A stretch of 48,422 nucleotides of DNA from Candidatus Micrarchaeia archaeon (GCA_038740245.1 JAVYLZ010000003.1:1-48422), one strand, 5' to 3'. Numbered from the stretch's first letter, positions 17,627-48,422 are shown. Numbers and translations: made by a program. Notes: generated by a model not told the origin, from the sequence alone.

Positions 17627-17640
17627 AAGTACACACCATT

Positions 17641-18390: not shown

Positions 18391-18400
18391 CGCATACCAC

Positions 18401-18685: not shown

Positions 18686-18846
18686 AATTTCACCATCGCA
18701 AGCTCGCCCGGCGGTCTAGCTATAGATTTTGTTAATAGCTTTAGAAGTTAGCCGAGCGGCGTGCTATTTTAAACATAGTTAGTTATATAAACCTGCGCCG
18801 CAATTACGAGGGAGGCGGGCATAAGTATTTAAACCACTGCCCCCAC

Positions 18847-26059: not shown

Positions 26060-26695
26060 TCAGCCGATAAGTTCGGCAATCTCATTGGCCGTGAGCGGCC
26101 CAACGGCGGCCTTATTGCCATACACGATTGTGGGGTACTCAGACACACCGTACTTCTTGCACAATGAAACGGCAATCGGGCTGTCAATGGTGCAGTCAAA
26201 GGAATAAACCCTGATGCGGGTGGCAAGGATGTCCTTTGCCTTCAAAAGCTCGCGGCCCTGTATGATGCACTTGTCGCCGCACTCCTTGTTGGAGTAAAAG
26301 TAAAGCACATCCTTATGGCTGCTGCCGCACGCATCGCGCATCCTGCTGCTCATCAGGAAGGACGCATACTCAAGCAGGAAATACTTGTCCTTCAATTCAG
26401 GGTCCGAAAAGCCCTTATTCTCCTCAAGGTAGGCAAGCTGGTAGCCGAGCTGCTCAGTGTCAGCATCAATCCTGCCCAGTTCCGAGCTGTAAAAATCGCA
26501 GAACTGGCTGTCATTTTCCATAAGGAAAAAAATCTGCATTGCGAGTGCATTGCTTGAGAGCTGTGATATCCTGCCCTCAATGCTTTCACCAACAATCCCG
26601 TCATATACTGTGCCAAGCATAAAGCCGACCGCAAACACCACTACGGTTATAACGAACGCAAGCACATACAGCGGCACATTCATCCTCCTTTCCAT
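26060..26695 (-). CDS. N-terminally anchored thioredoxin-fold-like protein
   Basis: The TM anchor is VPLYVLAFVITVVVFAVGFMLG. The C-terminal region has YFYSNKECGDKC and a cis-Pro-like EYPTIVYG. The CxxxC spacing is atypical, so this call is tentative. Confidence 0.45.
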   Translation of the reverse strand: MERRMNVPLYVLAFVITVVVFAVGFMLGTVYDGIVGESIEGRISQLSSNALAMQIFFLMENDSQFCDFYSSELGRIDADTEQLGYQLAYLEENKGFSDPELKDKYFLLEYASFLMSSRMRDACGSSHKDVLYFYSNKECGDKCIIQGRELLKAKDILATRIRVYSFDCTIDSPIAVSLCKKYGVSEYPTIVYGNKAAVGPLTANEIAELIG

Positions 26696-31993: not shown

Positions 31994-32017
31994 AGCGGAT
32001 TACATTCATACGGAAAG

Positions 32018-32027
32018 TTTTTATAGA
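32018..32027 (-). promoter_or_regulatory. TATA box upstream of the Kef-type gene
   Basis: The minus strand reads TCTATAAAAA about 25-34 nt upstream of ATG 31993. Confidence 0.5.
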
Positions 32028-32044
32028 TAGGATGCACTAACTCA

Positions 32045-32512
32045 ATAGGCGATGACGACACCACCCCAGATGAGCGCACCCTGTCGCGGCTTGAAGCGCC
32101 GCATATGGGGGTGTTAGCAATGACTGCCGGAGTAACTTCTGAGCCCATGCGAGGATGCTCGCGATAACGCGCTGCGCCGCATTTCCGCTGACGCGGGAAG
32201 CGATGCCTTTGGCTTCGCCAAAAGTGTGCCTCACTGTCCAGCGAATTATTTTTAAAAAATGTTTCTGATAGCTTCGCTTGGTTGTATGGGTTGCGAAGCC
32301 AAGCAAACCAAAAGGTTTGCGGGCAGTGTTGCCGATGGCAACAAGTTGTAGGCATCGCCTACAACCCCTTTCGCGAATGCGAAAGTGTGGGGGCGCTGGA
32401 ACCCACAAAATACGGTTGCTGGGCGTTTTGAAATGACCTTGCAAACTGACGTTTGCTGGCCACACGTGCGGAGCACGTGGTGGACTTCTAGCCCCCTTCG
32501 TTAGGAGTTCTG
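32045..32512 (-). ncRNA. Candidate structured noncoding RNA locus (one or two transcripts); identity and strand are unresolved
   Basis: At least ten short perfect hairpins lie within about 470 nt, and there is no protein-like ORF. A TATA-like ATTATAT (32534-32540) lies just beyond the upstream stop codon. A central T5A6 tract sits at 32248-32259. Confidence 0.35.
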
Positions 32513-32552
32513 AACCAACAAGAATGTTTGCAATTATATGAAATGTACAGGG

Positions 32553-35426
32553 CTAGCCGCAATCATTGCAGGCCATCCCTGCAACATACTTGCAGGCATT
32601 ATTGCAGTGCTCTATCTCATTCCACCCGATTGGCCCCCATACGCACACAATATCGCTGCACGAATCATATAGCGCTGCTGAGCATTCACTGGCGCTTGAC
32701 CCGCTATATGCACCACCCGCAGATGGGCACCACCCAGAAATGCGGTTGTATTCTGTTCCCTCACTTATAATTCCACTTTTTCTCCCAATCTCAAGATAAA
32801 CGTTGCACTGCTGGATAAGGCACTGCGGGCTTATCTGCTTTGGCGGTGCGGCCGCCGCTGGCGGCTCATTGTAAGGGCATCCAGGATCCAGCTCAATCGG
32901 TGAGGAAATAGCAAAAATGGTTTCTTCTGAAGAACCCTTAACGTATCCCTCCCCCATAAGGTATACTGAATCGCCTGCAAGTTGTCTAAGTGCAACATTC
33001 TTGAACGTCTTTGCGTTATTCTCGCACGCCGTGTGCCTCTTGTCGCAGTTTGAATCAAACATGGGCTTTATTTGCATCCAGAATGGATCCTCCACAACAA
33101 ATACTTTTGAAGACAATTCATTGCAAACAACTGACTTGCCTCCTGAACGGCAATTGTAACTTGTGCCTGTGCAGACAGACCCAACATCAAGCGAAAGGCA
33201 TTTTGTTGAGATATTCCCTCCTATCAGATCGCATTTGCTGGAGAGAGCTGCATAACACGAATCTGCATTAGGATACCCAAGAGAAATTGGGTTCAGCCAG
33301 CACGCAATAGTTACGGCTCCAGTGCAGTTATTACGCGTATCCGTTGCGATTGCAATGCACGAGTTGTAGAAGCACTCGTTGAACATCGCTTTTTGCGAGA
33401 ACACTAGCATATTCTCAACATTTGTTGATTCTGAAACAATGACCTTGCCGGTGCACCCTTCCTCGGCGCGCATCTCAAACAGCTTGACGCGCTTATCGCC
33501 TTCACCGAGGTATGAGCACCCTGAATAGTACGTGGACTCTATGGCGGACTTTGAGCCGTATATCAGTGGCTGGCCGCGGTATACCACAAGAGGGGTGTTG
33601 GTGCCTGCAAGTGTGCGCATAATATTTGCAAGATACTTATAGCCAAGCTTCCATCCTTCAGAAGATGAAAGGCCGGCAATGAACGAGTCATATGCTGGGC
33701 GCGTTACATTCCCTTTCAAATATTTCTCAAGCAGAACTTTCTCCTCGGCGCTGAGCTCGGTTTCAGAGTTGATGCATTCGGCCGGGGGCGCAATGCTTAC
33801 CACACGGCACGAGCCGTCTGTGCACACATCCTCCATACATTTGCGGTCCTCCTCATCAACTTTGTTGTCGTCGTTGAAGTCATACCGCTTGTCAAATTGC
33901 TTGAGCGCAAGGAACTGGTCAAACAGCTGCAGGTCATAGCCGTCTATGTAGGTGTCGCCGTTGAGGTCATATGTTGCGCCGTTTGGGTTGCACTGCTTCA
34001 TGCAGTCCAAGCATATCTCAGGAGGGCCCTGCTCAAATATCTGGAGGTCAAGACCGCTTTGCAGGTATTCATTATATTCTTGCGGCACGAAAATGTTCCA
34101 ATTATAACCATCGCTCGTGCACGAATAAAGCAGTTCTCCAAGAGTACATGGTTGCTGCAGCATTATGATTTCATCGCATACGATCTCAATGCATGTGTCA
34201 TCTCCGTTTGAATCCGCAAGATTATCTGACCCAGTACCGCCGCACGTGCCTGAGCCAATTTCCATGCACTTCTCAAGCGGCCCGCACTTTGACGGGTCAG
34301 CCTTGCACTGGGGGGATGCGCACGAGTCATCGCACACGTACCCAGCGGGACACGTGTTGCACATCTGCTTGCAGGAGTATGCGGTCTTTTCTGGGGAAGT
34401 GGGCGTGCACACCGCATCAGGGCAGTTTATCTCAACTGTGCCGTCGCTTATTGTGCAGAGCTGGCCGGCCTGCTCTGCAGTGCATTCCTTATCCACACAG
34501 GATGCGCACGCGCCTGTCTTTGGGTCCTTGCACCCAGTCCCCTCACAGGACTCATCGCATACAAAGCCGGCAGGGCACTTGTTGCATACCTCCTTGCACA
34601 CAAACGCGGACAGTGAAGTGTCTGTGGGAACGCACAGCGTATCAATGCACGGGTAAGAGCCGCCCTTGTCGGATGTTATCTTGCAGTATTCGCCCGCCTG
34701 CCACTGCGCTTTTGTGCACGGCTTGTCCGTGCATACCATACAGCTGCCGTCAGAAAGGCAGCAGCCGTTCGGGCACTGCTCACACACATAAGACCCAGGA
34801 AGACCGCAGGATTGTTTGCAGGTATGCTTTTTCAGTGCAGTGTCATAAACGCACGTTGAGGGTATGAGGCAGCCTACACAGTTGCCGGAAGCATCACATA
34901 CCTCACACGGCTCGCCCGCTTTTTCACAGGGCAGTGACTCGCACGTGAGCGGCTCGCACCTGCCCTTTGAGTTGCATGCATATCCATCACAGCATGAGTT
35001 GACATCGTTGGGGTTGCACAGCATCCCCTTTTCACAGGGCTCGCACTTGGACTCGGCGTTGCAGGAGAACCCGTTACAGCAGGGGCTTGACTCGCTGCAA
35101 GTATCTGGATTTACGCATACGTTCTGCGTGCATTCCGCCGGATTATCTATTTTGCAGCATATCCCTTTTCCCTTGTCAAGGTAATATCCTGCACCACATT
35201 TTAGATAGTCGCAATATTCAACGTAATTCCCCTCTTTGTCCTGCACACAGCAGCCGCACTCGCTTGAGTACCCCGCTGGGCACTGGACCGCCTCAGGCGG
35301 GCAGCCGCTGCCGCCTACACCTTGCAGCATCCATAAAATTGCAAGCGCAATTATCACTAGGAGTATAAGCGCAATCAGGGGCCTGAAATCCGCTGTTCCT
35401 TCCTGGTCGCTTCCCATAAGCATCAA
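32553..35426 (-). CDS. Secreted or anchored hyper-cysteine protein (957 aa) with a dockerin-like Ca-binding repeat pair and a C-terminal globular domain
   Basis: The N-terminal hydrophobic segment is PLIALILLVIIALAILWML. Dense Cys modules run to about aa 545. The sequence DLNGDTYIDGYDLQLF...DFNDDNKVDEEDRKCM resembles a dockerin repeat pair. The start overlaps the upstream stop. Confidence 0.7.
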   Translation of the reverse strand: MMLMGSDQEGTADFRPLIALILLVIIALAILWMLQGVGGSGCPPEAVQCPAGYSSECGCCVQDKEGNYVEYCDYLKCGAGYYLDKGKGICCKIDNPAECTQNVCVNPDTCSESSPCCNGFSCNAESKCEPCEKGMLCNPNDVNSCCDGYACNSKGRCEPLTCESLPCEKAGEPCEVCDASGNCVGCLIPSTCVYDTALKKHTCKQSCGLPGSYVCEQCPNGCCLSDGSCMVCTDKPCTKAQWQAGEYCKITSDKGGSYPCIDTLCVPTDTSLSAFVCKEVCNKCPAGFVCDESCEGTGCKDPKTGACASCVDKECTAEQAGQLCTISDGTVEINCPDAVCTPTSPEKTAYSCKQMCNTCPAGYVCDDSCASPQCKADPSKCGPLEKCMEIGSGTCGGTGSDNLADSNGDDTCIEIVCDEIIMLQQPCTLGELLYSCTSDGYNWNIFVPQEYNEYLQSGLDLQIFEQGPPEICLDCMKQCNPNGATYDLNGDTYIDGYDLQLFDQFLALKQFDKRYDFNDDNKVDEEDRKCMEDVCTDGSCRVVSIAPPAECINSETELSAEEKVLLEKYLKGNVTRPAYDSFIAGLSSSEGWKLGYKYLANIMRTLAGTNTPLVVYRGQPLIYGSKSAIESTYYSGCSYLGEGDKRVKLFEMRAEEGCTGKVIVSESTNVENMLVFSQKAMFNECFYNSCIAIATDTRNNCTGAVTIACWLNPISLGYPNADSCYAALSSKCDLIGGNISTKCLSLDVGSVCTGTSYNCRSGGKSVVCNELSSKVFVVEDPFWMQIKPMFDSNCDKRHTACENNAKTFKNVALRQLAGDSVYLMGEGYVKGSSEETIFAISSPIELDPGCPYNEPPAAAAPPKQISPQCLIQQCNVYLEIGRKSGIISEGTEYNRISGWCPSAGGAYSGSSASECSAALYDSCSDIVCVWGPIGWNEIEHCNNACKYVAGMACNDCG

Positions 35427-37087
35427 CCTACCACTATCTCCTTCGGCGCTGTAAAGCAGTTATTAATCTTATTTAGGAGACAAAACTTTTCCAGCTTAGT
35501 GCAGAAATTCCCCCCTACTTCTTCCTTATAATTTGAGACAATATATTCATACGGAGATATCATTGAGGTATCCACCCCAAAAACCGAGCCGTCCTTCTTA
35601 TAGAAAGTATACTTGTGATTATTCGGCCCGAGCTTTTCATACTGTGCACGCAAGCATACATAAGTCAGTAAAGTAGTTCCCTTAGTGACGTAAGCATAGC
35701 CGGACTTGCATATATCCGGGGGCACTTGGAGAGCACCTGCAGGCAAACCGTCATTAGGCACTATGTAAATGCAGCATTTTGATGGGTCCTTGGTGCACGC
35801 AAACGTCCCCCATTCGCACATAAGGTTCGGCGGTGCATGGCAGAACTCCTTTTTACCGGAGGGCGTGTCAAACACCATGCACGAATCGCCCACCATTGGC
35901 GCACCGGTGCATCCCTGCGGGCACTTGAACGTGTTTGGTGGGCATACGCTTACCGTCTGCGTGCCGTATGTGCAGCACGTGCACCCCTGCACTGTTTTGC
36001 ATGGATGGCCGCCTTCACCGCACGCACACTGCCCTGTGAACGCATCACAGCACCCTGTCGGGCATTCAGCAGTGTCGCAGGCGACCTGCCCCTCCGAGCA
36101 GCCGCCCTTCGGCTTGCACACAAACTCGTTTGCTGACTTGTCCTTTGCCGCGCATACCGTATTGTCGGTGCACTTTGAGCACTTATCGCTCCCAGTAGAG
36201 CAGAGCTCGCACGGCTCACCGGGGTTTGTACAGGGAGCGCCTTCACAGTTGCCAGTATATTCACAGCTACCCATTACACACACGCCGCCCGCACAGCACT
36301 CAGAATCCTTTGAGCATGATTTTTCACAGGACTCACATACCTTCTTCTCAAAATTGCAAGCGTAGCCGTTGCAGCATGGGTTATTTTCATCACAGTACGC
36401 GCCTTCCTTGCAGCCGGCACACTTGCCGTTCACGCACTGGAACCCGTCGCACGCGCACATCTGGCCCTGTAAAGGATTGCACGATGCAACGCAGTTCTTG
36501 CACGAGCCGGAGATGCACGCCCAGCCGTCACAGCAAGCACCGGGCTCACCTGGGTTGCAGGCCTTCTCACATGAAGTGCACTTGCCAAGATAGCATTCAT
36601 ATCCGCTGCAGCAGTCCTTAGCGGCGGTCTCAAGCATGCACGGCTTTGCCTCACACGCAGCGCACTTACCGTTAAAGCAGCTCATCCCGGAGCAGCAAGG
36701 GTTCTGCTCATCGCAATATGCGCCCTGCTCGCACCCCTTGCAGTCGCCGCCCTCGCATTTGCTGCCCGCACAGCAGTCGGAATCAGATTTGCAGGGCTCA
36801 ACTGCCACACATACAGCTGGACCTGATGCACAATCCTGCGGGTTTGACAGCGAGCAGCATTTGCCGTCCATGACCGCATACCCGCTGCACGATTTGCATA
36901 TATCAACGGAGCCGTCCGCGTTCTGGACACAGCAGCCGCACGGGCTGTCCGCACACGCATACGAGCCCTCAGGGCACTGTGCGCTGCTTGATGCACACAA
37001 CGCCTGCACTATCAATAACGCAAGCACGCCCGCACCAAGCAGTGCAAGCAGTTTCAGGCCGTTGTCATCCTCATCGCCAAGAGCCAT
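35423..37087 (-). CDS. Secreted hyper-cysteine protein (554 aa) with tandem knottin-like modules; paralog of the 957-aa protein
   Basis: The signal-like N-terminus is LKLLALLGAGVLALLIVQALCASSSAQ. I hand-counted about 86 Cys. There are at least seven tandem modules of the form C-x5-8-CC-x-G-x2-C-x2-3-G-x-C. Confidence 0.7.
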   Translation of the reverse strand: MALGDEDDNGLKLLALLGAGVLALLIVQALCASSSAQCPEGSYACADSPCGCCVQNADGSVDICKSCSGYAVMDGKCCSLSNPQDCASGPAVCVAVEPCKSDSDCCAGSKCEGGDCKGCEQGAYCDEQNPCCSGMSCFNGKCAACEAKPCMLETAAKDCCSGYECYLGKCTSCEKACNPGEPGACCDGWACISGSCKNCVASCNPLQGQMCACDGFQCVNGKCAGCKEGAYCDENNPCCNGYACNFEKKVCESCEKSCSKDSECCAGGVCVMGSCEYTGNCEGAPCTNPGEPCELCSTGSDKCSKCTDNTVCAAKDKSANEFVCKPKGGCSEGQVACDTAECPTGCCDAFTGQCACGEGGHPCKTVQGCTCCTYGTQTVSVCPPNTFKCPQGCTGAPMVGDSCMVFDTPSGKKEFCHAPPNLMCEWGTFACTKDPSKCCIYIVPNDGLPAGALQVPPDICKSGYAYVTKGTTLLTYVCLRAQYEKLGPNNHKYTFYKKDGSVFGVDTSMISPYEYIVSNYKEEVGGNFCTKLEKFCLLNKINNCFTAPKEIVVG

Positions 37088-37129: not shown

Positions 37130-40100
37130 CTACTTGCACTTATATTTCTTGTAAAGCGCCATCATTTTTGAGCCGTCGCACTGCGTGCCCTCCTGCCCCT
37201 CAGGCACCTTCCTGTCGCTGAATGTCAGGAGCGATTGCGGCACACCTCCGTAATAATAGCGGCCGCACTGGTCAAACCACGCGCGCGTGTAGGGATCCTT
37301 GCTGTAAGTATTCGGTGGCAACACTGCGCCCGGATCAACGCTTCCTGCACCAATGCCGCCGCCTATCCCCCCCAAGCCTGGGAGGCTGCCGCTCCCGCCT
37401 AAACCGCCCAAACCGGGTATGTTGCCCGCACCTAATACTATGCTAGAGCCTAAATTATTGCCTCCAAACAGCGAGCTAAGGCCTGACATGCCCGCAAACT
37501 GGAACCCGCCTCCTCCGCTTGTGCCACTAATATCAACCAAATTCCCATATTTAAACAGGAGAGATGCGCCCTTGTCCGAAGAGCTCTGGAATGACCAGGC
37601 GCCAACTTTCTGCGAGCCATCAACCCCACCCTGCCCAAATGGAAGCTTGTAGAAAGAAGAGGTGGTGTAATAGAGGCCATAATCACTGCCGGCAGAATAT
37701 GTTGATACGGGCGTGCACGCACCGTCTATCAGGCAGTATTGACCAATACCAATCACCCCTGAACCGGCAAGCATTATGAAGTCCTCTTCATATAGCTGCT
37801 GCACCTGTTCCATAATCTCATCGTGCGTCCAGCACGATTGCCGCTCGTCCATATTCCGGTTCAGCCCAAACCCAAGTATTATTGACGGGATGTCATAGTA
37901 TTTCATAGCATATTCTGAAACGTTGCGTATCCCGTCCAAGTAGTTTGTAAGCTTGCACTGGCCCCTGTATCCAGGCCCGGGGTCATCTATTACAATAACA
38001 AACCCTATCAGGTCTATTGATTCATTTTCTTCAGATTCCACAGCAAGCTGTATCCGAGTGCGCCTAAACGTCTCATTTATCGTCTCTTTCATTGCATTTA
38101 TTTCACGGTTCGTGAGCTTTGTCCCATTAACATGTATGTAGAACGGCAATGTGGATATGCAGCGCTGCATGCGCACGGTGTTATTGCCGGGGCAGTAATA
38201 GCTGTATTCGCATTTGGCGTTTGCATTGCTGCACTGTATTGCCCCCCCATCCTTCTTGCACTGGTCCTTTGGTATTGTGCTGTCGCACATCTTTGTTGCG
38301 CCTTCCCAGTAACAGCAGCATCCTTCTTGGTTGTAATCCTTATAGCTTATGTTCTGCTCAATGTTCTCGCTCTTCGCACCATCAGTACCATCCTTAGGAA
38401 CTTCACACAGCGAATTATCACTATACCCTGTTGCCTGCCTGCAAGTTATCTCTATAGTAGCAATTTGGCTCGCCAGGCCTTCAAACACTAATGTCTTGCT
38501 CACACCGCTTCCGGATGGATATTTTATGTGCGAATTTGGCTTGGTTGTGCTGTCTGCACCCGTACCGCCGCTCCATATGGGGGGAACTTTAACTTCAATT
38601 TCGGTAGGTGCAGAAGATTCAAATTCATTGCCAGGATATGATTCGCCCGCACCGAGCTCAACAAGGCCGTCTACACTCACAAGCTCCGCGGTTATTATTG
38701 CAGGTGTTGCCGGCGCGCGCGGATTCAATTGCAGGTTCTCATATGCGGGATTGTCATAGCCGGGCTTAGGCTCGCTGATGGCCTTGGTTATGTTGGCAAG
38801 CATATTTACTGATTCTGTGCCGCCAACACTTTCCTCGGTGGGCACAAGCCACTGTGAAGTAAGCCCATCCTTAAAGCCGGCTTTGGCATTCTCCACAGGG
38901 ATGCACTTGCGCTCGCCTTTGCTTAGCGTAATCGTTTCAGGGGATGTTCCACCTGTAACCACCTCGCGTGAGTCGCGGCTGTAATCCATATTGGTTATGC
39001 ATACGCCCGTTGTTGCACCTTGCGTTATGCTAATGCTTGAAGGGTCAAACGTGTTCATGTTAAGCGAGACCTGCGTTACAAGGCGCTCAACAAGCACGTA
39101 AATCCTCCTGCCGCTGTGCGGGTTGTAAAGCATATACTTTGCCGCCCTCTCATTAGGATTCAGCGATAGTTTCAACAAGTGGGTGTCGCCACTTGAAATT
39201 GAAGCGCGTGAATAACCATAAGAAGACATGCGTGCAGGTGAATTGAGGTAAGTGTCAATGTCCCTCGGGCTTATTGAGTAATCGTTGTAGTTATTTATGC
39301 AATTAGCATAGTTTGTGGTGCCATCAGCGTTTTTCTCACCAAAGCACGCTGCATTCATCCTGTCAGAAACCAGTTTCTGGAGGTCGTTTGATTGGCCGCA
39401 GGGGTCAACCTTGCCTAAGTACCATACTGCAGTGTCAGGCCCGATATTTCTAAGGGTAAACGACGAACCGTCTGGCACTACTATCTCATCGCCGACCACA
39501 TTCACTGTCATATTGTAAAGGTAAATTTTGACAATATCTTTTGAGATATCCGCAGAATAATTTCTGTATCTCCGTCCACCATCCGGGAATGTTGGGATTG
39601 AATAGCTTACAGAGCCAAGCTTTGTGTCTTCCAGCTTCTTCACGAAAGGCGATATGTGCGAAAACACACTGGTAGCAACTTTCATCTCTATTGTGCCGGC
39701 AGGATCTATCGGAACCTCATTATAACTGCCCACCAGCCCCGCATAATATGCCGGCTCATAAACCGCAAACGTGCCCATCACTTCAGGTGCATACTGCTTC
39801 TGGCCCAGCGGCGGTATTATGTCCTGTATGCCGTTGTATGTATCCTTGCCGTAGCACATCACTTTTATGCCTTTTTTGCTCTTTACCGTAAAGGTCTGTG
39901 TGAGCACATAACCCTTCCCCTGCTCAAGAATCTTTGCGCCTAAATACTCCGATTCGGCAAATTTGTCGGTTGCACTCTCAATGTCATTTATGAGGTAGAG
40001 ACGGCCGCCAGTGAACGCAGTTACAGGTATGCTGCCATACCTCGGCACTGCATAATTGTTTGGGTGCACGTATGTTTCTGTGCATTCGCACTTACCATTA

Positions 40101-43100
40101 TTATTGCTAGATCCAAGCTTGCACATTGAGCACGTGCTCGTAATGGTGCCGCTTACTGGGTCAAACCCGGGCAGCACATACTCATAATATGCGGGCTTAC
40201 CTGCCGGCTGGTCTACAAAATCATATATCTTGTCCTTGTTGTAGTGGGGCTCGTTTGCGTATGGTGTTGCCACAATTTTTGCGAGATCATATTCTGACAA
40301 ATCGGTTCTCGGAACTTTAACCCATACGCCATAATCATCAGACTTGTGGCCGAAAGGCGCAGGGTTTGAGCGGCACCACCACACATCATATGAGTTGCTG
40401 CAGTCTTTATGGTTCATGCAGCCATTAAAGCACTCCGCCTCACCGCTGCAAGAATCTTTGCAAAATTCCTCAAGCGTGCCGCACAAAGTTCCAAACTGGC
40501 TGTAAAATACCGAGCTACCATCTATAATATCACAGTCCTCCCCGCATTCATTGAAATCAATCTCAAGCTCGCAATAATCGTTACCACTGCCTGTATTATC
40601 ACATAGTCTATTCCCTGCTGTATCATACCCACAGAAATAGTTATCATTATTATAATCACTCATTAAGCCACCGCTACCTGGCAGGGGCTCCCATACTCCC
40701 TTATCATTAATCCATCTCTCAATCTTTGGCCCGTTATTCTTTTCGGAATCCTCGCTATAATTAAGCTGGCCCGGAGTAAACGTGAGCCCGCCTTCTGTTA
40801 TCAGCTCACCGTTTGATACACGAATCCGCCTCCAGTCTGGATTGTCCGGGTACTGGAATGTTAAGTACTGGCCGCTCTTATATACGCTAATGTCCCCAAC
40901 AATCTGCGGCAGGATTGGATATGACGGCGCACCGTTTTCTGAGGATGAATGGATGTAATCAATTTCATTAGAGTAATCAAGAGGCATTACAAGTTGGCCA
41001 CCTGAAGTTCGTGCGACTATAATTGGCCAGGCGTATGAAAAGTCCTTGGTTTTCTTTATTGTGCCGGACATATTGAATGGCACATACATGCTCTTCTTTA
41101 CAGCAGCAGTTTGATAGTCCTCCTTAGTAGCATAGTTCCACCATATCTGTGGATACACCGACCTGCTCTTGTTAATTACTATTGAGCCACGCCACACATC
41201 ATAATACTCCAGGTTAAAGAGCTCATCGTTTATGCTCCACGTTGGGTTGGGGGATGGCGGCAGCCGCCTTAACAGGACACTATAGTCCCCAACATTATTT
41301 ACCCCAAAAAGAAGATAGGGCGCGCCATCTTTGGATTTAACTTGTTGATTGCTGAACAGCCGTACCGTATACGCTGATTTTGTGTAGTTCAGGTTGCTTA
41401 TAAAGCCTGGCGCAAGCTGCAATGAACTGCCGTACACTTTTGCGTAAGTACTTTCTAAAGGAGTTCCGGAAATGAAAGGTACAAGCGCAGTAACTTCATT
41501 TTGGCCCACAAATGGCCTATTCAAGTATGCGTTTATGTTAGTGTACCCCATATTGGGCAAAAGCTCAATGTCTGCAAGCTTTTTTGCCGTGCCTACATAT
41601 TTGTCATGGTTCTCCAAAGCATCCAGTATTGCAACAGGAACTGAATAAAGCTCCATATTGTAAGCCGTGTAATAATCATTCGCACCTGCGATATTAAACT
41701 CGTTTTCAGCGTCTTGGCGGATCATTGTGCAGTATTTGGATGGATCATCAGGCCTAAGCATAATCGCACGCGGCTCAAAAGCAAGGTTTTGCACGCTGAG
41801 CGCATAATTATTACGTGATTCGGGTGGGCTAACACTATACTCATCATAAGAGAAGTTGAGCTCCTGCACGGGCTTGACTGGTTTTAAGATTATTTTCTTG
41901 GTTGCCGAACCCTTGGTTAGAGTGAACACAACTTCCTTGTCTGGCATGTCAAACTCCCAGCGCACGCATTTCGGAAACAGGAAATCTCCAACCTTAACCA
42001 TTCTTGATTCGCTGCAAGGTATCTCAGGAGACGACGACACAACTGCATTCACATCATCAAGCGTTACGTTGACAAGTGAGCCGACCACCGCACTGTAATT
42101 CTCCTCCTCAGTCGGGTTCTTCAGCACAACTTCGGCATCGCCTATCCGTGAATACAGGAACACCGGCAAGCTTTGGTGGTAGGCGAGCATTTCGCGTGCC
42201 TTCATAAGCGTATCCTCATCAGGCACACCTGATATCACCTGCACTCCGAAATCAAGCGGGCTTTCACCAACACCCTGCCGATACTCAAGCGCGCTTTTAT
42301 CAGACGGCTTTATAATCAAGAGCCCTAACTGCATAAACTGCGTTTTCTCTGTAAGCTTGATGCCAGAACCGCCGCCAATAAGCGGCCTCCCTGAAACATC
42401 ATATCCCACCGGTACGTTGCCATAATACCCTGCAACAGCTGATGTGACATTGCCTTGCAATGATTTTGTTTTCCCGCTCTCAAAGACAACCTGTGTTCTT
42501 GAAAACATTGAGCTAAAATCAACATAAGTGCTGTTTTGGTCAAAAGTGTTTTTGTTTGGGTTATTTCTACCAAGCGTAAGACGGTTGCCATCCTCCTTCA
42601 AACAAAGAGTTTTATTTTCATAAGGCAAAATATAACTCTGAGAAACAAAGCCAGATATGTAAAGTGTAACTGTCTCATTGATGTTGTTTTTAACTATGAT
42701 GCACGGGGATAACGGCTGCATATAGTTCGTTGCAAACCCGCTGTCGTAAATGTTAAGCTCGTTGTAAACAGTGTAATCATAGTCATCAACGTTCGTGACC
42801 GTAATGCTGCCATGCGAAGATGCACCGGTTATCTCTTTTGGCGGCGGGATATCAATCTCCAAATAGGATGGAATCATCTTACCGTTTACAATATACCCTG
42901 CATTGGGCGGGCCAACCGCCACAAGCACGTTGACGCCGCTTTCATTGTGCCGCATTAAGTAAAGGCCTTCTTGATCCATGGTAAAACAGGACATATCATA
43001 TGCCTTTACGGATAAGACCCTTGCACCCGTTTTTAGAAGTTCTGCCGATGTGCTTGCGAGCACTGACGACTTTGTAACTTTTATTGGCCCGATTATTGTG

Positions 43101-46100
43101 GCATCACTGTCAACTGCGTTAATGCACACATATCCTCCCGTGCCTACCCTCCCAGAAACCGGCAATGCTGCTGTGGCATATACATCCACTCTGAATACAT
43201 CACTTGTATTAACATAAAGCGTGAACTTGCCACCGGTATCAGTATCAACAAAATTGTATGTGCCATCCTCCCTCGTGAAGTTGTAGGTGCAGAACCTTCC
43301 AAGCGGGGGCACCTTAAACTCGCCAGAAACGCCGGCCGTGGAATCATAGGTTAGCGTGCGGTTTATGTTCACTGGGTTCTCAATGCACACCAAATCATCA
43401 ATCTTTGAAAGTGCTGTTGGTGGCGTGTATGCATAATCCCCTATGCGGATTGTTGAGATAAGCGAGGCAGGGTATACCACAGCATACCCGTAATTGCCCG
43501 GTATCTGGTAATCAGAGATGCGGTAAATGCCTGCACCGGGCAGGTCAAAACAGCACTCCAGCCCGTAATATGATGATTTCGCCTCAATAGGTACGTATGC
43601 ACCTGTGTAATTGAGCTTCTTCTCAAGCAGTATTGTCTTCTGCGCATTCGGGACTTCGTTGCGCACGCACAGCTTTGAGCCCTCGGCAACCTGTATCGCG
43701 CCGGGCAGGAACCACGGGCTTGCTGCAGAGCCAACCATGCGCAACACAGTGCCGTCCGCATATGCAACATATGTGAATGGATGGTCATCAACATAATCTA
43801 TGTATTCAGCAGGGGTATTGACAAGCGCTATGCGGTCGCCGCCCTTCTCCTCTATTTTCAGTACCGGATACAACTGCGCACCTTCTATTTTAATTGGGCC
43901 GCTGGGCCACACCGGCCCAGGTACGTAAAGCGTGCCCTGCGGTGTAATGCCGATTTGCACGCCGCCTAAAGAAGACTGGCCTCCTGGTGTAAGTGAGATC
44001 CCACCGATTGTTATCCCGCCTAAAAGAATTGGGGGCAACAGCGGGATGCTCTGCTCTGGGATCTGCGGGGTTACTTCAGGGGGGATATAGCCCTCCATAT
44101 ACCCTGATGCGAACACCGGATCCATCTCAATATAGCCATCGTAAAGGAATAGCGGCTTGCCATTGTATAATTTCACGATATTCCTCCCGCCAACGTTGGC
44201 TGTTGCTTTTTCAAGCACTATTTGTGCGCGTGCGTATTCGTTTTCATCCAGCCACAAAACTGAATATGTCTTGTTAATTTTCGTGTTGGGCCCGACAGGC
44301 AGGCAAACACTTTCACCTGGAGGCACCGTCACAAGCTCGCGCTTAACCGATGGCATAAGCGGCATCTCTATATCTGAAGAGGCTATCTTTATGGTGTGGT
44401 TTGAAACGCCCATATTGTTGAAGCACAGGCGTGAGCCCTCACGCACAGTTATGGCGTTTGGGTCAAACGGCAGGCCGCCGGCAGTTATCTTTACAGCTGC
44501 AGGGTCTGATGGCTGGCACAGGCTGCGTGCTATCAAGTAGTCATCAAAAGTCGGCCCCTGCCCAATCATAAACATTGGTATTTTAGTATCCCTGCTTTCA
44601 AGCAGTGCTTTGAACACACCGCCCGTGAAATTGTGCACCTCATACAGATAGCCGCCCTGTGAAGACGTGTCTGCTATGCGCTCACACTGTGTATAGTAAT
44701 ACTTGGTCGGGTTGCCGGGCCGTGTGCACTCATACGTTGCATATATCGGCTTGGCGCACGCGCACTGGCACACAAAATACCTGATATTTGCATCGTTCAA
44801 ACTTCCTTTATCGCAAACCTTAACCGTTTTTGAGCTCACGCATTTGCACTTATCTTCGTTCTCCTCACAATATTTGCACTTGGCTGGCTCTGAACTGCAT
44901 GAGAACAATTGGCTTGGGTTTGTCACATTGCGGTATACCAAACATTCCTCCTTGGTCATAAGCTTCCCGCTAATTGCACGGTCAATCTCAACACAGGGGG
45001 TGAGTCCCGTGCAGCAGGGTGCTTTGGTTTCAGTTGAAGTTGAGGTGTCATCACTTTCGCAGGCATTATCAGGGTTCAACTCCGCTTGCGTGTAGCCACG
45101 CTCACTAACTTCACTCGCTTCACTGCCCATCGTTGTCTTCTTCTTTGCAGCTTCCTTTTGTGTGCACTCGTTGCAGGCATCAACGCTTGACTTGACGCCT
45201 TCCTCCGCAAGGCTCTCAAGCGACTGCTGCTCCTGCTGGCACACATCTTCACACCCCTTAATAATGCCGCTTTCTTTTTGTGCATTCTTCTCATAGCTAC
45301 TCGCTGGCTCTGTAAGCTTCTTGTAATCCAAAGAGAGGTCCCGTATCACAACTGAGGGATTAGTGTCGGCATTAACAACTGGATTGTACTTGAAATTCAT
45401 TGCATTGTAGGGGTATTCAATGGGCATTGCGGCCTTGCACTGTTCTGGGAGGCCTGCAATAAGTATCCCCCCGTCCGCACACGTCCTGCACCCGTTTTCA
45501 ACATCGCAGTTATCAAGCGAGTATGTGCCGCTGCGTTGCATGCTTGAGATTGCATTGCATATGAACTGACCAGAGCTCGTCTCAGTATTGCCTGAATCCA
45601 GCTTGACCTTGCCCATTGAGCCGATGCCATCGTAATACTGGCCGGTTATTGCGTTCTCGGCTGGATAGAATGTGAGGTACGCATACAAATTACCTTCAAA
45701 TGGGCAAGCCGCATCGCCAGTGTAGTATAGCGCGGAATCCCCGCTGCAGTCATATTCAAGGCATAGGGTATCAGGGTATTCAAGCTCTCTGCACTCATCA
45801 CCATAGAGGGAATAGTACTTGTTGCCCTGCGGGTCATCATTTGCGCCTTTGAATGCAGGCGAGCATTCCCAGCGCACGTTGCTCTGATACTGCTGCTGTG
45901 CAATCGCCATACACGTGGCTGCCTTGCACTCCACGTCCGGCGCCTCCACACACTTATGAGTAAGCTGGTCGCACATCATGTTGGGGCTGCAGCCCTCAAT
46001 GTTTTGGCATTGCGCATCCGTAAGGCAGCCGATATCACACTTGGCTTTTTCTTTCTCAACGGTAATGCTTTTCGGGAGCTCGCTTCGCCCATAGTATTTC

Positions 46101-46159
46101 AGGCAGCCAGCGAGCACAAGCAGGCCCACAATGAAACATACGAACAATGCCCTGCGCAT
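37130..46159 (-). CDS. Giant (3009 aa) putative surface lipoprotein or adhesin
   Basis: The frame is uninterrupted for 9 kb. The N-terminus MRRALFVCFIVGLLVLAGC is a signal peptide with a lipobox. A Cys-rich head is followed by many beta-rich modules with paired Cys. A Gly-rich tract lies near the C-terminus. Confidence 0.8.
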   Translation of the reverse strand: MRRALFVCFIVGLLVLAGCLKYYGRSELPKSITVEKEKAKCDIGCLTDAQCQNIEGCSPNMMCDQLTHKCVEAPDVECKAATCMAIAQQQYQSNVRWECSPAFKGANDDPQGNKYYSLYGDECRELEYPDTLCLEYDCSGDSALYYTGDAACPFEGNLYAYLTFYPAENAITGQYYDGIGSMGKVKLDSGNTETSSGQFICNAISSMQRSGTYSLDNCDVENGCRTCADGGILIAGLPEQCKAAMPIEYPYNAMNFKYNPVVNADTNPSVVIRDLSLDYKKLTEPASSYEKNAQKESGIIKGCEDVCQQEQQSLESLAEEGVKSSVDACNECTQKEAAKKKTTMGSEASEVSERGYTQAELNPDNACESDDTSTSTETKAPCCTGLTPCVEIDRAISGKLMTKEECLVYRNVTNPSQLFSCSSEPAKCKYCEENEDKCKCVSSKTVKVCDKGSLNDANIRYFVCQCACAKPIYATYECTRPGNPTKYYYTQCERIADTSSQGGYLYEVHNFTGGVFKALLESRDTKIPMFMIGQGPTFDDYLIARSLCQPSDPAAVKITAGGLPFDPNAITVREGSRLCFNNMGVSNHTIKIASSDIEMPLMPSVKRELVTVPPGESVCLPVGPNTKINKTYSVLWLDENEYARAQIVLEKATANVGGRNIVKLYNGKPLFLYDGYIEMDPVFASGYMEGYIPPEVTPQIPEQSIPLLPPILLGGITIGGISLTPGGQSSLGGVQIGITPQGTLYVPGPVWPSGPIKIEGAQLYPVLKIEEKGGDRIALVNTPAEYIDYVDDHPFTYVAYADGTVLRMVGSAASPWFLPGAIQVAEGSKLCVRNEVPNAQKTILLEKKLNYTGAYVPIEAKSSYYGLECCFDLPGAGIYRISDYQIPGNYGYAVVYPASLISTIRIGDYAYTPPTALSKIDDLVCIENPVNINRTLTYDSTAGVSGEFKVPPLGRFCTYNFTREDGTYNFVDTDTGGKFTLYVNTSDVFRVDVYATAALPVSGRVGTGGYVCINAVDSDATIIGPIKVTKSSVLASTSAELLKTGARVLSVKAYDMSCFTMDQEGLYLMRHNESGVNVLVAVGPPNAGYIVNGKMIPSYLEIDIPPPKEITGASSHGSITVTNVDDYDYTVYNELNIYDSGFATNYMQPLSPCIIVKNNINETVTLYISGFVSQSYILPYENKTLCLKEDGNRLTLGRNNPNKNTFDQNSTYVDFSSMFSRTQVVFESGKTKSLQGNVTSAVAGYYGNVPVGYDVSGRPLIGGGSGIKLTEKTQFMQLGLLIIKPSDKSALEYRQGVGESPLDFGVQVISGVPDEDTLMKAREMLAYHQSLPVFLYSRIGDAEVVLKNPTEEENYSAVVGSLVNVTLDDVNAVVSSSPEIPCSESRMVKVGDFLFPKCVRWEFDMPDKEVVFTLTKGSATKKIILKPVKPVQELNFSYDEYSVSPPESRNNYALSVQNLAFEPRAIMLRPDDPSKYCTMIRQDAENEFNIAGANDYYTAYNMELYSVPVAILDALENHDKYVGTAKKLADIELLPNMGYTNINAYLNRPFVGQNEVTALVPFISGTPLESTYAKVYGSSLQLAPGFISNLNYTKSAYTVRLFSNQQVKSKDGAPYLLFGVNNVGDYSVLLRRLPPSPNPTWSINDELFNLEYYDVWRGSIVINKSRSVYPQIWWNYATKEDYQTAAVKKSMYVPFNMSGTIKKTKDFSYAWPIIVARTSGGQLVMPLDYSNEIDYIHSSSENGAPSYPILPQIVGDISVYKSGQYLTFQYPDNPDWRRIRVSNGELITEGGLTFTPGQLNYSEDSEKNNGPKIERWINDKGVWEPLPGSGGLMSDYNNDNYFCGYDTAGNRLCDNTGSGNDYCELEIDFNECGEDCDIIDGSSVFYSQFGTLCGTLEEFCKDSCSGEAECFNGCMNHKDCSNSYDVWWCRSNPAPFGHKSDDYGVWVKVPRTDLSEYDLAKIVATPYANEPHYNKDKIYDFVDQPAGKPAYYEYVLPGFDPVSGTITSTCSMCKLGSSNNNGKCECTETYVHPNNYAVPRYGSIPVTAFTGGRLYLINDIESATDKFAESEYLGAKILEQGKGYVLTQTFTVKSKKGIKVMCYGKDTYNGIQDIIPPLGQKQYAPEVMGTFAVYEPAYYAGLVGSYNEVPIDPAGTIEMKVATSVFSHISPFVKKLEDTKLGSVSYSIPTFPDGGRRYRNYSADISKDIVKIYLYNMTVNVVGDEIVVPDGSSFTLRNIGPDTAVWYLGKVDPCGQSNDLQKLVSDRMNAACFGEKNADGTTNYANCINNYNDYSISPRDIDTYLNSPARMSSYGYSRASISSGDTHLLKLSLNPNERAAKYMLYNPHSGRRIYVLVERLVTQVSLNMNTFDPSSISITQGATTGVCITNMDYSRDSREVVTGGTSPETITLSKGERKCIPVENAKAGFKDGLTSQWLVPTEESVGGTESVNMLANITKAISEPKPGYDNPAYENLQLNPRAPATPAIITAELVSVDGLVELGAGESYPGNEFESSAPTEIEVKVPPIWSGGTGADSTTKPNSHIKYPSGSGVSKTLVFEGLASQIATIEITCRQATGYSDNSLCEVPKDGTDGAKSENIEQNISYKDYNQEGCCCYWEGATKMCDSTIPKDQCKKDGGAIQCSNANAKCEYSYYCPGNNTVRMQRCISTLPFYIHVNGTKLTNREINAMKETINETFRRTRIQLAVESEENESIDLIGFVIVIDDPGPGYRGQCKLTNYLDGIRNVSEYAMKYYDIPSIILGFGLNRNMDERQSCWTHDEIMEQVQQLYEEDFIMLAGSGVIGIGQYCLIDGACTPVSTYSAGSDYGLYYTTSSFYKLPFGQGGVDGSQKVGAWSFQSSSDKGASLLFKYGNLVDISGTSGGGGFQFAGMSGLSSLFGGNNLGSSIVLGAGNIPGLGGLGGSGSLPGLGGIGGGIGAGSVDPGAVLPPNTYSKDPYTRAWFDQCGRYYYGGVPQSLLTFSDRKVPEGQEGTQCDGSKMMALYKKYKCK
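37343..37516 (-). repeat. Gly-rich low-complexity tract within the giant protein
   Basis: The tract reads GGGGFQFAGMSGLSSLFGGNNLGSSIVLGAGNIPGLGGLGGSGSLPGLGGIGGGIGAG and lies about 70 aa before the C-terminus. Confidence 0.8.
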
Positions 46160-47005
46160 TTACACATTCCCCACACTAACTAATTCCATGCTAATGCTTT
46201 TATTCGTGCCGTCATCGGCAGTTCCACTGGCATCCATGCGGAAAAGAATGGGTATATCGCTGCCAACCCATGCCTCCATCGTGCCGCTCCTGTATACCTT
46301 CACCGCATACTTCTTGCCGCCAAGAGCCACAGCATCATCACGGACAAACGCGCTTTCGCTTGCGAGCTCGCTGCACACAAACCATATGGGATAGGAATTG
46401 CATTGTGCGCGCTTAGTGTCGCCATAGGGAAAAGAATACTCAACCTGCACGCATTTTCCGTCAAGGCCATACGTATACCTCGCATTTGTGGATATCTTCT
46501 CACCGTTATATATAGCCCGCGTGCTCACTGAATGCACTGCCGTTGTGCCGTAATACCCCTGAAACGTGCTCTGCGTGTAAATGGGTGTGCCGTCATAGAT
46601 TATCCTGTAGGTAGTGTCAAGGGACAGCAAGCGCACCGGATCGCCGAGAGGGGTGCACGAATAGTTGTATGAAGGGGGGCCCTGCTCTGTTTGGTTGCCC
46701 TGCAAAAAGCCTCCTCCCAGGCCGACAATCTGGGGAAGCGTGCCGTTTGGCTGGTATGCCGGGAGATTGCTTAACTTATCAGTGGCGGCAGTTGCAGCTG
46801 TCTCAATAAAATCAATTTTTGGGGATGGCTGCGGGAGAATGTAGTTAAGGGCGATAACCACAATGAATAGGATTGCAATCGCCAGGGCGAGATTTTTGGC
46901 CTGCGGTGCAGAACTTTGCGGGGCACTGGTGTGGCCGGCAATTGCACGCGCGACCCAATATGCATCACGTGCCTTTCCAATGTGTCCCTTGCCAATATCC
47001 TTCAT
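46160..47005 (-). CDS. Bitopic membrane protein with an N-terminal TM anchor and a beta-rich extracellular domain
   Basis: The TM segment is LALAIAILFIVVIALNYIL. The stop abuts the start of the giant gene with 0-nt spacing. The start is ATG 47005; TTG 47017 is an alternative. Confidence 0.55.
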   Translation of the reverse strand: MKDIGKGHIGKARDAYWVARAIAGHTSAPQSSAPQAKNLALAIAILFIVVIALNYILPQPSPKIDFIETAATAATDKLSNLPAYQPNGTLPQIVGLGGGFLQGNQTEQGPPSYNYSCTPLGDPVRLLSLDTTYRIIYDGTPIYTQSTFQGYYGTTAVHSVSTRAIYNGEKISTNARYTYGLDGKCVQVEYSFPYGDTKRAQCNSYPIWFVCSELASESAFVRDDAVALGGKKYAVKVYRSGTMEAWVGSDIPILFRMDASGTADDGTNKSISMELVSVGNV

Positions 47006-47020
47006 CAAAGCCACCAACCG

Positions 47021-48133
47021 CTATATTACGCGCACCATCCCGCGGCCTATGTCCGCAATGTTGCCCCCAAGTATCTGCGTTAGCGAGCGCGCAAACAGGA
47101 ACGTGCCAACCATCGCAACAAACGGGTAGAAATATGCATACAGCCGTATACGGCCGGCAGTATCCTGTGAGAACCCGCCAACATCGCTGGAGATGAGCTT
47201 GCCGTAGCCGCTTGAGCCTGCTGGCTTATTGCCCTGCGACTCCTCAATCAAGGATTCAATTGCCGTGGGGTCCGCAGGGCACATCTTCTTGCCCTCTTTA
47301 ACTGTTTCCTCCTCTTCCTCAACAATTTCAACGGCAACCGAGCACTTGTCCGGAAGCGGGGGAGCATTCACGAACAGCACTGTAAGCAGGAACGGGTATA
47401 CAAAATAAAGCGAGATCGCAATGCCCATAATCGCTGCACCGCCCCCGCGCGTGTACGGGAATGCGCGGAGCAGAATTCCAAGTGGTAGATATACGGTAAC
47501 CATTGACGCCTCAATCCACTGCAGGAAATTAATCTGGAAATAGGCGGCAAGCGAAAGCCACAGTATTTCTTCTGCATCCATTATGGCAACCATAAGCTTT
47601 CCCCAAGCGTCGGTTGCAAGATCAAGTATTACGGGGATTGGCAACGGTACTAATGCACCCATCACATTGAGACTTACGCCCATACGCGGTATCATCTCAT
47701 AAGCCTGCAGCTTAAGCAGCCGGTTATATTCGGACTTGAGGCATTTCAGCGAGCTCAGCAGGTAAACGTATGAGACATCAAATATGTTTACTTGGTAACC
47801 GGTCTTGCCAAGTATCTGCTCTGCTGCTGCACCGCCTATCATATCCCTGAAATCCTTGTTGCCTGCGATTATGAAAGATTCTGTTGTTGCAAAGGCCATA
47901 AGAAATGTTATGAGAAGCACCGTGGCCGCCAGCTGGAAGAACTCGCGTCTTACAGCCATCTCAAGAGTGCGCGAGCTGAATATCTTTGATGCCATATAGA
48001 GTATTATGAGCATGAAGGCGATTATCATTACCACTGACATTGCTATACCATACCACTCAAGTGGCATGTTCTGGGCCAATACCTGTGCAGAAGTTTCCCA
48101 TGGCGAAAGTGCAACATCTATGCTCGTCATCAT
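47021..48133 (-). CDS. Polytopic integral membrane protein of 370 aa with about 7 or more TM segments
   Basis: It has multiple long hydrophobic segments and an acidic loop (EIVEEEEETVKEGKK). Its start overlaps the upstream stop (ATGA). No family was recognised from sequence alone. Confidence 0.6.
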   Translation of the reverse strand: MMTSIDVALSPWETSAQVLAQNMPLEWYGIAMSVVMIIAFMLIILYMASKIFSSRTLEMAVRREFFQLAATVLLITFLMAFATTESFIIAGNKDFRDMIGGAAAEQILGKTGYQVNIFDVSYVYLLSSLKCLKSEYNRLLKLQAYEMIPRMGVSLNVMGALVPLPIPVILDLATDAWGKLMVAIMDAEEILWLSLAAYFQINFLQWIEASMVTVYLPLGILLRAFPYTRGGGAAIMGIAISLYFVYPFLLTVLFVNAPPLPDKCSVAVEIVEEEEETVKEGKKMCPADPTAIESLIEESQGNKPAGSSGYGKLISSDVGGFSQDTAGRIRLYAYFYPFVAMVGTFLFARSLTQILGGNIADIGRGMVRVI

Positions 48134-48422
48134 ATCGCCCTCATTATGCCGGAGATGTCAATCTCAGAGCCAAGCGTGCCGGCCAGACTGCGCACCAGCG
48201 CCGCGGTTATAAGCACCTGCAGTGCGGGTATGAAGAACACAAGCAGCATCACCGAGCCGTAGGCATTGTAAACATCAATGAAATACTCATTAATGCTTGC
48301 AGTATCCATGCCTGAGGACAGCCCTAGTGCTGTGAGCCCTAATAAACCACTAACACCTGATACTATAAGACCTGTAACACTTGCCATTCCGGCTAGGGCG
48401 CCTGCAAACATCACTGCAAGCA
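48130..48422 (-). CDS. Small two-TM hairpin membrane protein; possibly truncated by the window edge
   Basis: The first hydrophobic helix is GALAGMASVTGLIVSGVSGLLGLTALGL, followed by a polar loop and the second helix SVMLLVFFIPALQVLITAALV. The frame stays open upstream to the window end. Confidence 0.5.
   Translation of the reverse strand, partial: LAVMFAGALAGMASVTGLIVSGVSGLLGLTALGLSSGMDTASINEYFIDVYNAYGSVMLLVFFIPALQVLITAALVRSLAGTLGSEIDISGIMRAI

Follow-up and report, generated by a model that had tools for sequence, protein, structure and literature searches.

In toxin biology and in drug design, knottins rank among the major scaffolds. Those of the inhibitor-cystine-knot (ICK) type pair their six cysteines I-IV, II-V and III-VI, with the III-VI bond threading the ring. 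Among spider ICK peptides, the huwentoxin-1 type (Toxin_12, PF07740) is a free secreted peptide of 30-40 amino acids (aa), while Hi1a and DkTx carry two knots in tandem. The fold was reported absent from archaea as of 2017-18, and our literature search returned no later paper on archaeal knottins and none describing the genes or the operon considered here. These genes, ORF A and ORF B (ORF, open reading frame), lie next to each other in a 48,422-nucleotide (nt) stretch of DNA from a Candidatus Micrarchaeia archaeon (GCA_038740245.1, JAVYLZ010000003.1:1-48422), hereafter the window. Their products, proteins A and B, are exceptionally rich in cysteine and carry tandem six-cysteine modules with the spacing of ICK knottins. 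From sequence analysis and structure prediction we lean, with slightly better than even confidence, towards the view that A and B are disulfide-knotted stalks of an undescribed envelope or attachment complex of Micrarchaeota.

Two paralogous cysteine-rich proteins

The two genes and the segments of their products are as follows, in window coordinates.

35423..37087, minus strand: ORF A, 554 aa, 86 Cys (15.5%)
36992..37063, minus strand: A residues 9-32, single N-terminal hydrophobic helix, signal anchor or signal peptide (helix 9-32 in the AlphaFold2 model)
36812..36976, minus strand: A residues 38-92, Cys-rich N-domain common to B (CPxG...CGCCV...CC..NP..C; BLASTP of A against B, E 5e-12; invariant Cys)
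36263..36811, minus strand: A residues 93-275, seven tandem six-Cys ICK-type modules with 2-aa linkers
35771..36262, minus strand: A residues 276-439, other Cys-rich units, namely a 'C..PC...GEPC..C' unit and a 'GCCD..TG.C' unit, both also in B
35426..35770, minus strand: A residues 440-554, Cys-poor, beta-rich C-terminal domain without recognisable relatives (AlphaFold2 predicted local distance difference test, pLDDT, about 52-83 per 10-residue block)
32553..35426, minus strand: ORF B, 957 aa from TTG (956 aa from the ATG at 35423), 98 Cys (10.2%)
35325..35381, minus strand: B residues 16-34, N-terminal hydrophobic helix with R15 just before it
34956..35117, minus strand: B residues 104-157, two ICK-type modules
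34302..34742, minus strand: B residues 229-375, two Cys-rich repeats of ~72 aa ending CNxCPAG(F/Y)VCD(E/D)SC
33807..34013, minus strand: B residues 472-540, dockerin type I-like module with twin Ca2+-loop motifs
32556..33806, minus strand: B residues 541-957, C-terminal region of unrecognised fold with scattered conserved Cys

The initial annotation of this DNA had counted about 86 cysteines in the 554-aa protein by hand, and the exact count is 86; the mean for 11 ordinary proteins of the window is 0.86% Cys. The start of ORF B overlaps the stop codon of ORF A (TGATG). As had been proposed, the proteins are paralogous, which BLASTP with compositional adjustment confirms for the N-terminal ~160 aa (E 5e-12), and they share two further types of Cys-rich unit downstream. 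Cys positions are kept in orthologues of 31-46% identity. The two copies of a unit of about 70 aa that had been noticed in B also held up on alignment, with a mutual score of 192 against 42 +/- 7.5 for shuffled sequences. ICK-type modules take up about 6% of B, as against about one third of A; other Cys-rich units and Cys-poor C-terminal domains account for the rest.

Scans of A against Pfam and NCBIfam returned no family, even at E<=1, and a phmmer search of B against PDB sequences gave a single weak match to a repeat protein and nothing more. Foldseek found no PDB match below E 0.1 for the whole A model, a search that is uninformative for proteins made of many mini-domains. The parity of Cys counts across orthologues, tried as a test of full disulfide pairing, was inconsistent and likewise uninformative. 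An acidic motif (DEDDNG), conserved in the orthologue alignment, precedes the helix of A. More generally, a short acidic segment of the form (D/E)(D/E)xG or EGAD(I/Y)R stands right before the helix in both families (window 36992-37087 and 35325-35426) and loosely resembles a prepilin site.

A six-cysteine module

The module array of A was first described by the pattern C-x5-8-CC-x-G-x2-C-x2-3-G-x-C. The repeats are real, as all seven quoted strings are found in A (residues 99-275) and the two reported for B are both found at residues 104-157, but the pattern left out one cysteine. The natural module has six, the one to be added being the second Cys of each inter-module CxxC, with which the following unit begins. 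In its best register the module reads C-x3-5-C-x5-8-CC-x4-C-x4-6-C, which is the ICK framework, and this register divides the array of A into seven head-to-tail modules of 22-26 aa joined by 2-aa linkers. Cys-Cys spacings over residues 93-275 are (5,5,0,4,4,2)(5,5,0,4,4,2)(4,8,0,4,4,2)(3,7,0,4,4,2)(3,7,1,4,4,2)(5,5,0,4,6,2)(3,5,0,4,4). The strict six-Cys pattern occurs six times in A; 2000 shuffles that preserved composition had 0.22 occurrences on average and never more than 3. All seven modules of A and both of B fit C-x3-5-C-x5-8-C(-x0-1-)C-x4-C-x4-6-C and, with it, the knottin framework C-x(3-7)-C-x(3-8)-C-x(0-7)-C-x(1-4)-C-x(4-13)-C.

Conservation follows the same register. When 43 modules from A, B and their orthologues were aligned, five Cys columns were invariant and the sixth exceeded 90%; in the larger set (43-71 modules, orthologues included) all six are invariant or nearly so (>=90%). 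A glycine two residues past the CC doublet is present in at least 70% of the 43 aligned modules, and the position that follows it is often aromatic (CCxG[YFW]xC). Apart from Cys and Gly, module surfaces vary freely among orthologues, and a conserved cleavage motif is absent from the linkers. The number of modules differs between A (seven) and B (two) and among orthologues as well. Residues 93-275 of A contain no histidine.

Resemblance to knottins

A hidden Markov model (HMM) of the module, 23 positions long, was searched against 177,635 PDB sequences. All 28 matches at E<=10 were spider ICK toxins, led by the double-knot toxin Hi1a (E 1.3e-3) and hainantoxin-3 (3.9e-3), with Tsp1a and heteropodatoxin-2 next; modules and matched toxins have the core CD...CC.G(Y/L).C in common. 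Full-length A, searched with phmmer against all PDB sequences, found only two chains, PcFK1 (E 0.08) and SHL-I (E 0.46), both of them spider ICK peptides. When 71 single modules were scanned against Pfam, 29 matched Toxin_12 (best E 8.5e-4, sub-threshold), 16 Dickkopf_N and 8 Toxin_23; the module-level matches were all to disulfide-rich secreted families.

The initial annotation had likened the spacing to both ICK and granulin-like mini-domains and had proposed HMM searches against the knottin, granulin and EGF families together with structural modelling. Only the knottin side was matched, below threshold. Granulin and EGF gave no Pfam match for the whole protein (E<=1) or for any of the 71 modules (E<=10). 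Granulin (PF00396) has twelve Cys with four CC doublets (C-x5-6-C-x5-CC-x8-CC-x6-CC-x5-CC-x4-C-x5-6-C), whereas the period here is ~24 aa with one CC per six Cys, and the granulin likeness is not supported. EGF-like domains have six Cys without a CC doublet (C-x-C spacing; I-III, II-IV, V-VI), in contrast to the doublet of the modules.

An AlphaFold2 model of a single module, built from the 71-module alignment, reached a pLDDT of 82 and has strands at 21-24 and 27-30, forming a C-terminal beta-hairpin that bears Cys5 and Cys6. Its Foldseek neighbours in the PDB are mostly ICK peptides, with a root-mean-square deviation of 1.0-2.2 A over 25-30 residues, E values of 0.4-8, which reflect the tiny size of the domain, and template modelling (TM) scores of 0.57-0.76, which over ~30 residues are weak evidence. 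They include Tsp1a (1.0 A, TM 0.67/0.73), asteropsin F (1.1 A), aptotoxin VII (1.3 A), ProTx-I, conotoxin TVIIA and DkTx; TNFR1 and factor VII EGF chains were weaker neighbours (TM about 0.4-0.5). The model of full-length A has a pLDDT of 67 overall, mostly 64-83 per block in the array, and repeats the same hairpin in each module. The suggested ICK resemblance is supported by the Cys framework, and the profile matches and predicted structure, all of them sub-threshold, point the same way; the modules share the ICK framework and probably the fold.

Proposed surface location and stalk

If the modules are knotted, they should fold where disulfides can form. Extracytoplasmic oxidative folding of A and B is a reasonable reading of the sequences because both have an N-terminal hydrophobic helix, B has a dockerin-like module, and the neighbouring genes encode secreted or membrane proteins. 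The residue before the helix is basic in the B family (R15 in B). The dockerin-like segment of B (residues 472-540) contains duplicated Ca2+-loop motifs, DLNGDTYIDGYD and DFNDDNKVDEED, bracketed by Cys. Pfam Dockerin_1 matches the window copy just under its cut-off (E 6.9e-4, 20.2 bits; cut-off 22.9) and was matched in 7 of 11 members of the B family, with a best E of 7.9e-7. The loops (DLNGDxxLDxxD and DFNxDxxVDxxD) are conserved in the family, where the segment is among the best-conserved stretches apart from Cys.

We infer disulfide bonding, an extracellular location and a stalk role from these features. In the architecture we propose, the single N-terminal hydrophobic helix would hold each protein in the membrane, or pass through it, and the Cys-dense N-terminal ~430 residues would project as a long stalk of tiny disulfide-locked units, with knottin-like beads at its core, seven of them in A and two of them in B. 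Because three disulfides are predicted for every ~24 residues and linkers are all but absent, such an array may form a stiff rod that resists heat, acid and proteases. The rod would hold the Cys-poor C-terminal domains off the membrane and, in B, also a Ca2+-dependent dockerin-like docking module.

Several observations weigh against this reading. Every knottin match falls below curated or significance thresholds, whether in Pfam, in the HMM search of the PDB or in Foldseek (E 0.4-8), and AlphaFold may just map the Cys framework onto knottins from its training. A framework-only control, in which all non-Cys residues were shuffled and Cys kept in place, still found spider toxins (13 of 16 matches, best E 0.054 against 0.0013 for the unshuffled profile). 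In the A family, acidic residues take the place of basic ones ahead of the helix, and the topology is therefore not secure. N-glycosylation sequons number zero in A and are below expectation in B, a measure that is uninformative as a proxy for surface exposure, their density not being enriched in the giant protein encoded upstream of A either. No gene for a secreted thiol oxidoreductase was found within the window, and some source habitats of relatives are probably anoxic sediments. Lastly, Pfam scans of the operon proteins revealed no cohesin partner for the dockerin-like module.

The control also bears on ancestry. Since a profile stripped of all but its cysteines finds the same toxins, the sequence similarity is largely that of the Cys framework, non-Cys residues adding about 5 bits, and common descent with spider toxins is unproven. 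Homology to them was dropped on this ground, and convergence with animal toxins is the simpler reading.

The same cysteines might bind metals instead of each other. The Cys region would then carry Zn, Fe-S or Cu in the manner of a metallothionein, without disulfides, either in the cytoplasm, if the acidic N-terminal tail is exported and the C-terminus stays inside, or as an extracellular metal sponge in metal-rich habitats. The acidic n-region of the A family, unlike a classical Sec signal, is in keeping with this, as are the CxxC pair at every module junction, a Cys content of up to 15.5%, the hot-spring or sediment origin of some relatives and the lack of an oxidoreductase gene in the window. 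However, the module array is devoid of His, and each module has a conserved Gly, an aromatic position and a predicted beta-hairpin, an order that metallothioneins lack. The basic residue before the helix in the B family (N-in), its extracellular-type dockerin module and operon partners that are all membrane or secreted proteins also argue against it. Neither A nor B matched a zinc-finger or Fe-S family in Pfam at E<=1, and the module-level matches were exclusively to disulfide-rich secreted families. We consider metal binding quite unlikely.

The likeness to toxins raises another possibility, namely that A and B serve as polyprotein precursors or as carriers, and that their modules are bioactive knottins which, released or tethered, target competitors or the host archaeon by blocking channels, inhibiting proteases or acting as antimicrobials. 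Ion-channel-blocking spider toxins share with the modules the framework and a few further residues, tandem 'double-knot' toxins exist and are among our matches (Hi1a best in the HMM search, DkTx in the fold search), and DPANN archaea depend on hosts whose envelope they must manipulate (PMC11329633). The arrangement of the modules speaks for a scaffold over a specific module activity, because the 2-aa linkers lack processing sites and the surfaces vary while Cys and Gly stay fixed, and because module number varies and, in a distant Micrarchaeota locus (L008), a Cys repeat of another type, ~43 aa long, occupies the corresponding place in the operon. The modules are also placed between a membrane helix and conserved C-terminal domains, and by the framework-only control their non-Cys likeness to toxins is small. 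We give this explanation little credence, and retain disulfide-knotted stalks as the preferred reading.

Distribution of the families and of the module

The initial annotation had called such arrays unusual in archaea, and both families are very rare. A word-indexed search of 5.8 billion clusters returned six relatives for A and five for B; those with names are all from Candidatus Micrarchaeota/Micrarchaeia metagenome-assembled genomes (MAGs). An exhaustive profile search of 1.84 billion representatives gave 147 matches at E<=1e-3, about 16 of them A-type and 11 B-type. Of the A orthologues (P0002-P0007, P0014-P0019), those with names are exclusively from Micrarchaeota, and a profile scan of GTDB species genomes with a 5-sequence alignment found just three loci, all in Micrarchaeota MAGs, whose names point to a hot spring, a 'Dive96' sample and a lake sediment as sources.

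Most other profile matches were bacterial proteins with a four-Cys repeat, C-x4-DC-x2-G-x2-C-x2-G-x-C, in large secreted proteins or lipoproteins (P0022, P0031, P0040). These share the 'DC..G..C..G.C' half and the tandem layout and are weakly found by the A profile over the module array (P0022 at E 1e-43, others at about 1e-13 to 1e-3). They have four Cys per unit and no CC doublet, so that a three-disulfide knot is impossible; theirs is not the same module, and the weak matches of the representative search were not kept as relatives.

The six-Cys module itself occurs outside A and B, for example in P0078 from a Micrarchaeota MAG. P0033 (L012, 5174-7660) starts with a class III-type signal peptide, MRGQGATDYLLLV, has roughly 20 modules (21 CC doublets) and carries a precomputed faint Toxin_12 match. 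P0046 also combines a class III-type signal peptide with roughly 20 CC-type six-Cys modules, and both proteins are presumably archaeal. Because these two carry the same type of module, it looks like a reusable unit that is not confined to families A and B.

Operon and genomic setting

A and B are the last two genes of a co-directional operon of at least 10 genes, which comprises six paralogous polytopic membrane proteins, a small anchored protein, a lipoprotein-like giant of ~3000 aa, A and B. Gene junctions overlap or abut (TGATG, TAAATG, ATGA), compatible with translational coupling. The part upstream of A that lies in the window is as follows.

37130..46159, minus strand: giant ORF, 3009 aa, with RR and a lipobox-like N-terminus, Cys-rich ends and a Gly-rich C-terminal tract
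46160..47017, minus strand: 285-aa ORF with one N-terminal transmembrane segment, basic on its N-side; its stop abuts the ATG of the giant (TAAATG)
47021..48133, minus strand: 370-aa polytopic membrane protein, last of the six paralogues
48130..48422, minus strand: truncated gene of the paralogue before it (3' end only, the rest lying beyond the window edge), orthologous to the 367-aa protein of L006 and overlapping the next start (ATGA)

The giant begins MRRxLF...GC, which is twin-Arg-like and lipobox-like with G18-C19 invariant. In Pfam and NCBIfam it has no recognisable domain save a weak Cupredoxin_1 match, and its position is syntenic in L001-L004, L006 and L008. The 285-aa and 370-aa proteins had no match in either database. 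On longer related contigs the gene string opens with six polytopic membrane proteins of 301-472 aa (L006, 4276-11083; also L004, L005 and L008), mutual paralogues by BLASTP (E 1e-6 to 1e-12 for most pairs) that share an LPxGxxLRxxxFxRxxG motif and a C-terminal LGxxxDISGxxRxx tail. A profile of this family matched nothing in PDB or Pfam, and NCBIfam showed no relative either. A VirB6/TrbL-like or pilus-platform identity was considered and left unsupported by the empty PDB and Pfam searches, and the paralogues appear to be an undescribed family specific to Micrarchaeota.

The same gene order is found in the four loci that cover the A position (L001-L003, L006), and giant, A and B followed by an Na+/H+ exchanger and SRP54 is the order kept in L001-L003. 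L004 has a 598-aa gene, presumably A-type, running off the locus at the A position, and L005 is cut inside the giant. In L008 a 1888-aa giant is followed at 17484-19904 by an 806-aa protein with 129 Cys (16%) and the different ~43-aa repeat mentioned above (CP.ER.C.PSAYPATCPSSGCCP.GT.WN.TQNCC...); this locus has no separate A/B pair and no dockerin motif.

The stalk reading extends to these neighbours. A and B may be stoichiometric parts of one envelope complex together with the giant lipoprotein and a base formed by the six membrane paralogues, and this complex would serve as a surface or attachment apparatus of a host-dependent archaeon. Complex formation and host contact we likewise infer, the attachment role because cultured Micrarchaeota are obligately episymbiotic (PMC8784108, PMC11329633).

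A membrane base of this kind could also carry a fibre, in which case A and B would be pilin-like subunits with a degenerate class III signal and pilin helix. A conserved G followed by a hydrophobic helix, e.g., EDTG-MELIAILLIG (P0003, P0014, P0017), is prepilin-site-like, and P0033 and P0046, with their same modules, start with a clear class III signal. However, the residue before the G is D/E/T/N and not K/R, the motif varies, the operon is without a gene for a prepilin peptidase, a PilB/FlaI ATPase or PilC/FlaJ, and the membrane paralogues match no pilus family. A pilin identity is unlikely on this balance, and we return to anchored stalks as the favoured architecture.

The wider window is core archaeal chromosome, in agreement with the archaeal setting first assigned to it, with S19e, L31e, S4e, L34e, eIF6, TFE, prefoldin, SecY and SRP54 as neighbours, along with FtsY, CorA, a GT2 glycosyltransferase and a HerA-type ATPase. 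Between the glycosyltransferase and the ATPase lies a 211-aa ORF (26060-26695) without a Pfam match, whose equivalent is a 216-217-aa gene beside the GT2 gene in L001-L003. Downstream of B, a 560-nt gap (31994-32552) separates its end from the Na+/H+ exchanger gene, compared with only ~150 nt in related loci. Folding of 32020-32520 gave -200.8 kcal/mol (z -5.9 against shuffles) on the minus strand and z -4.6 on the plus strand, as a chain of perfect hairpins. Rfam had no match to the gap even at E<=1, no tRNA was found there, and over the window as a whole neither Rfam (at its gathering threshold) nor a tRNA scan gave any match. The gap may be an unannotated structured RNA.

Significance

If the assignment is right, a seven-knot archaeal protein would take the knottin fold to a third domain of life, and A would be a natural poly-knottin architecture. 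On the sequence and model evidence, the novelty would be threefold: the domain of life in which the ICK-type modules occur, their arrangement as a seven-fold tandem array within an anchored protein, and their genomic surroundings. Such a protein would also raise the question of how a minimal-genome organism oxidises more than 40 disulfides per chain. A fuller version, in which A and B are the first archaeal knottins, evolved independently of animal toxins and serving as rigid-stalk beads of a Micrarchaeota-specific envelope machine for host attachment or exchange, is a possibility that we put forward tentatively and consider doubtful as a whole. For the way in which DPANN archaea, Micrarchaeota among them, grip and exploit their hosts, a conserved, translationally coupled operon composed wholly of uncharacterised membrane and surface proteins is a concrete candidate, testable in existing Micrarchaeota co-cultures. 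The result, which is based wholly on sequence analysis and prediction, would surprise knottin specialists.

Comparison with known systems

Within the same phylum, the S-layer protein SLP_Mh of Ca. Micrarchaeum harzensis is, like A and B, a surface protein with an N-terminal signal or transmembrane segment. It has been described as nearly free of sulfur-containing residues and as containing the S-layer domains TIGR01564/TIGR01567 (bioRxiv 10.1101/2021.04.28.441871), whereas A and B are its opposite in composition and matched no S-layer model in Pfam or NCBIfam. Identity with the Micrarchaeota S-layer protein was dropped because SLP_Mh is Cys-poor. Type I dockerins (PF00404) of cellulosomal and other secreted proteins share with B the duplicated Ca2+-binding loop-helix motif; the copy in B differs in lying mid-protein, bracketed by disulfide-type Cys, below the curated cut-off and with no cohesin identified.

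By proposed function, the closest systems are eukaryotic Cys-rich stalks (EGF-like, TNFR, Giardia VSPs), in which many tiny disulfide-locked modules make a rigid, protease-resistant ectodomain on a single anchor. A and B differ from these in their CC doublet with knottin spacing, their prokaryotic host and an anchor that is N-terminal and not C-terminal, and neither the proteins nor single modules matched Pfam EGF, TNFR or VSP families.

Spider ICK toxins differ from A in several respects. A is an archaeal, membrane-anchored protein of 554 aa with seven knots and 2-aa linkers, not a free secreted peptide; it has no propeptide or cleavage sites, and it scores below the Pfam cut-offs. The likeness lies in the framework C-x3-7-C-x5-8-CC-x4-C-x4-13-C with the core CD...CC.G(Y/L).C, in a predicted C-terminal beta-hairpin with Cys5 and Cys6, and in a predicted backbone that superposes at 1-2 A. 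By framework and predicted fold, the Toxin_12 knottins appear to be the closest of the known systems, the double-knot toxins Hi1a and DkTx especially, whose knots stand in tandem as the modules of A and B do.

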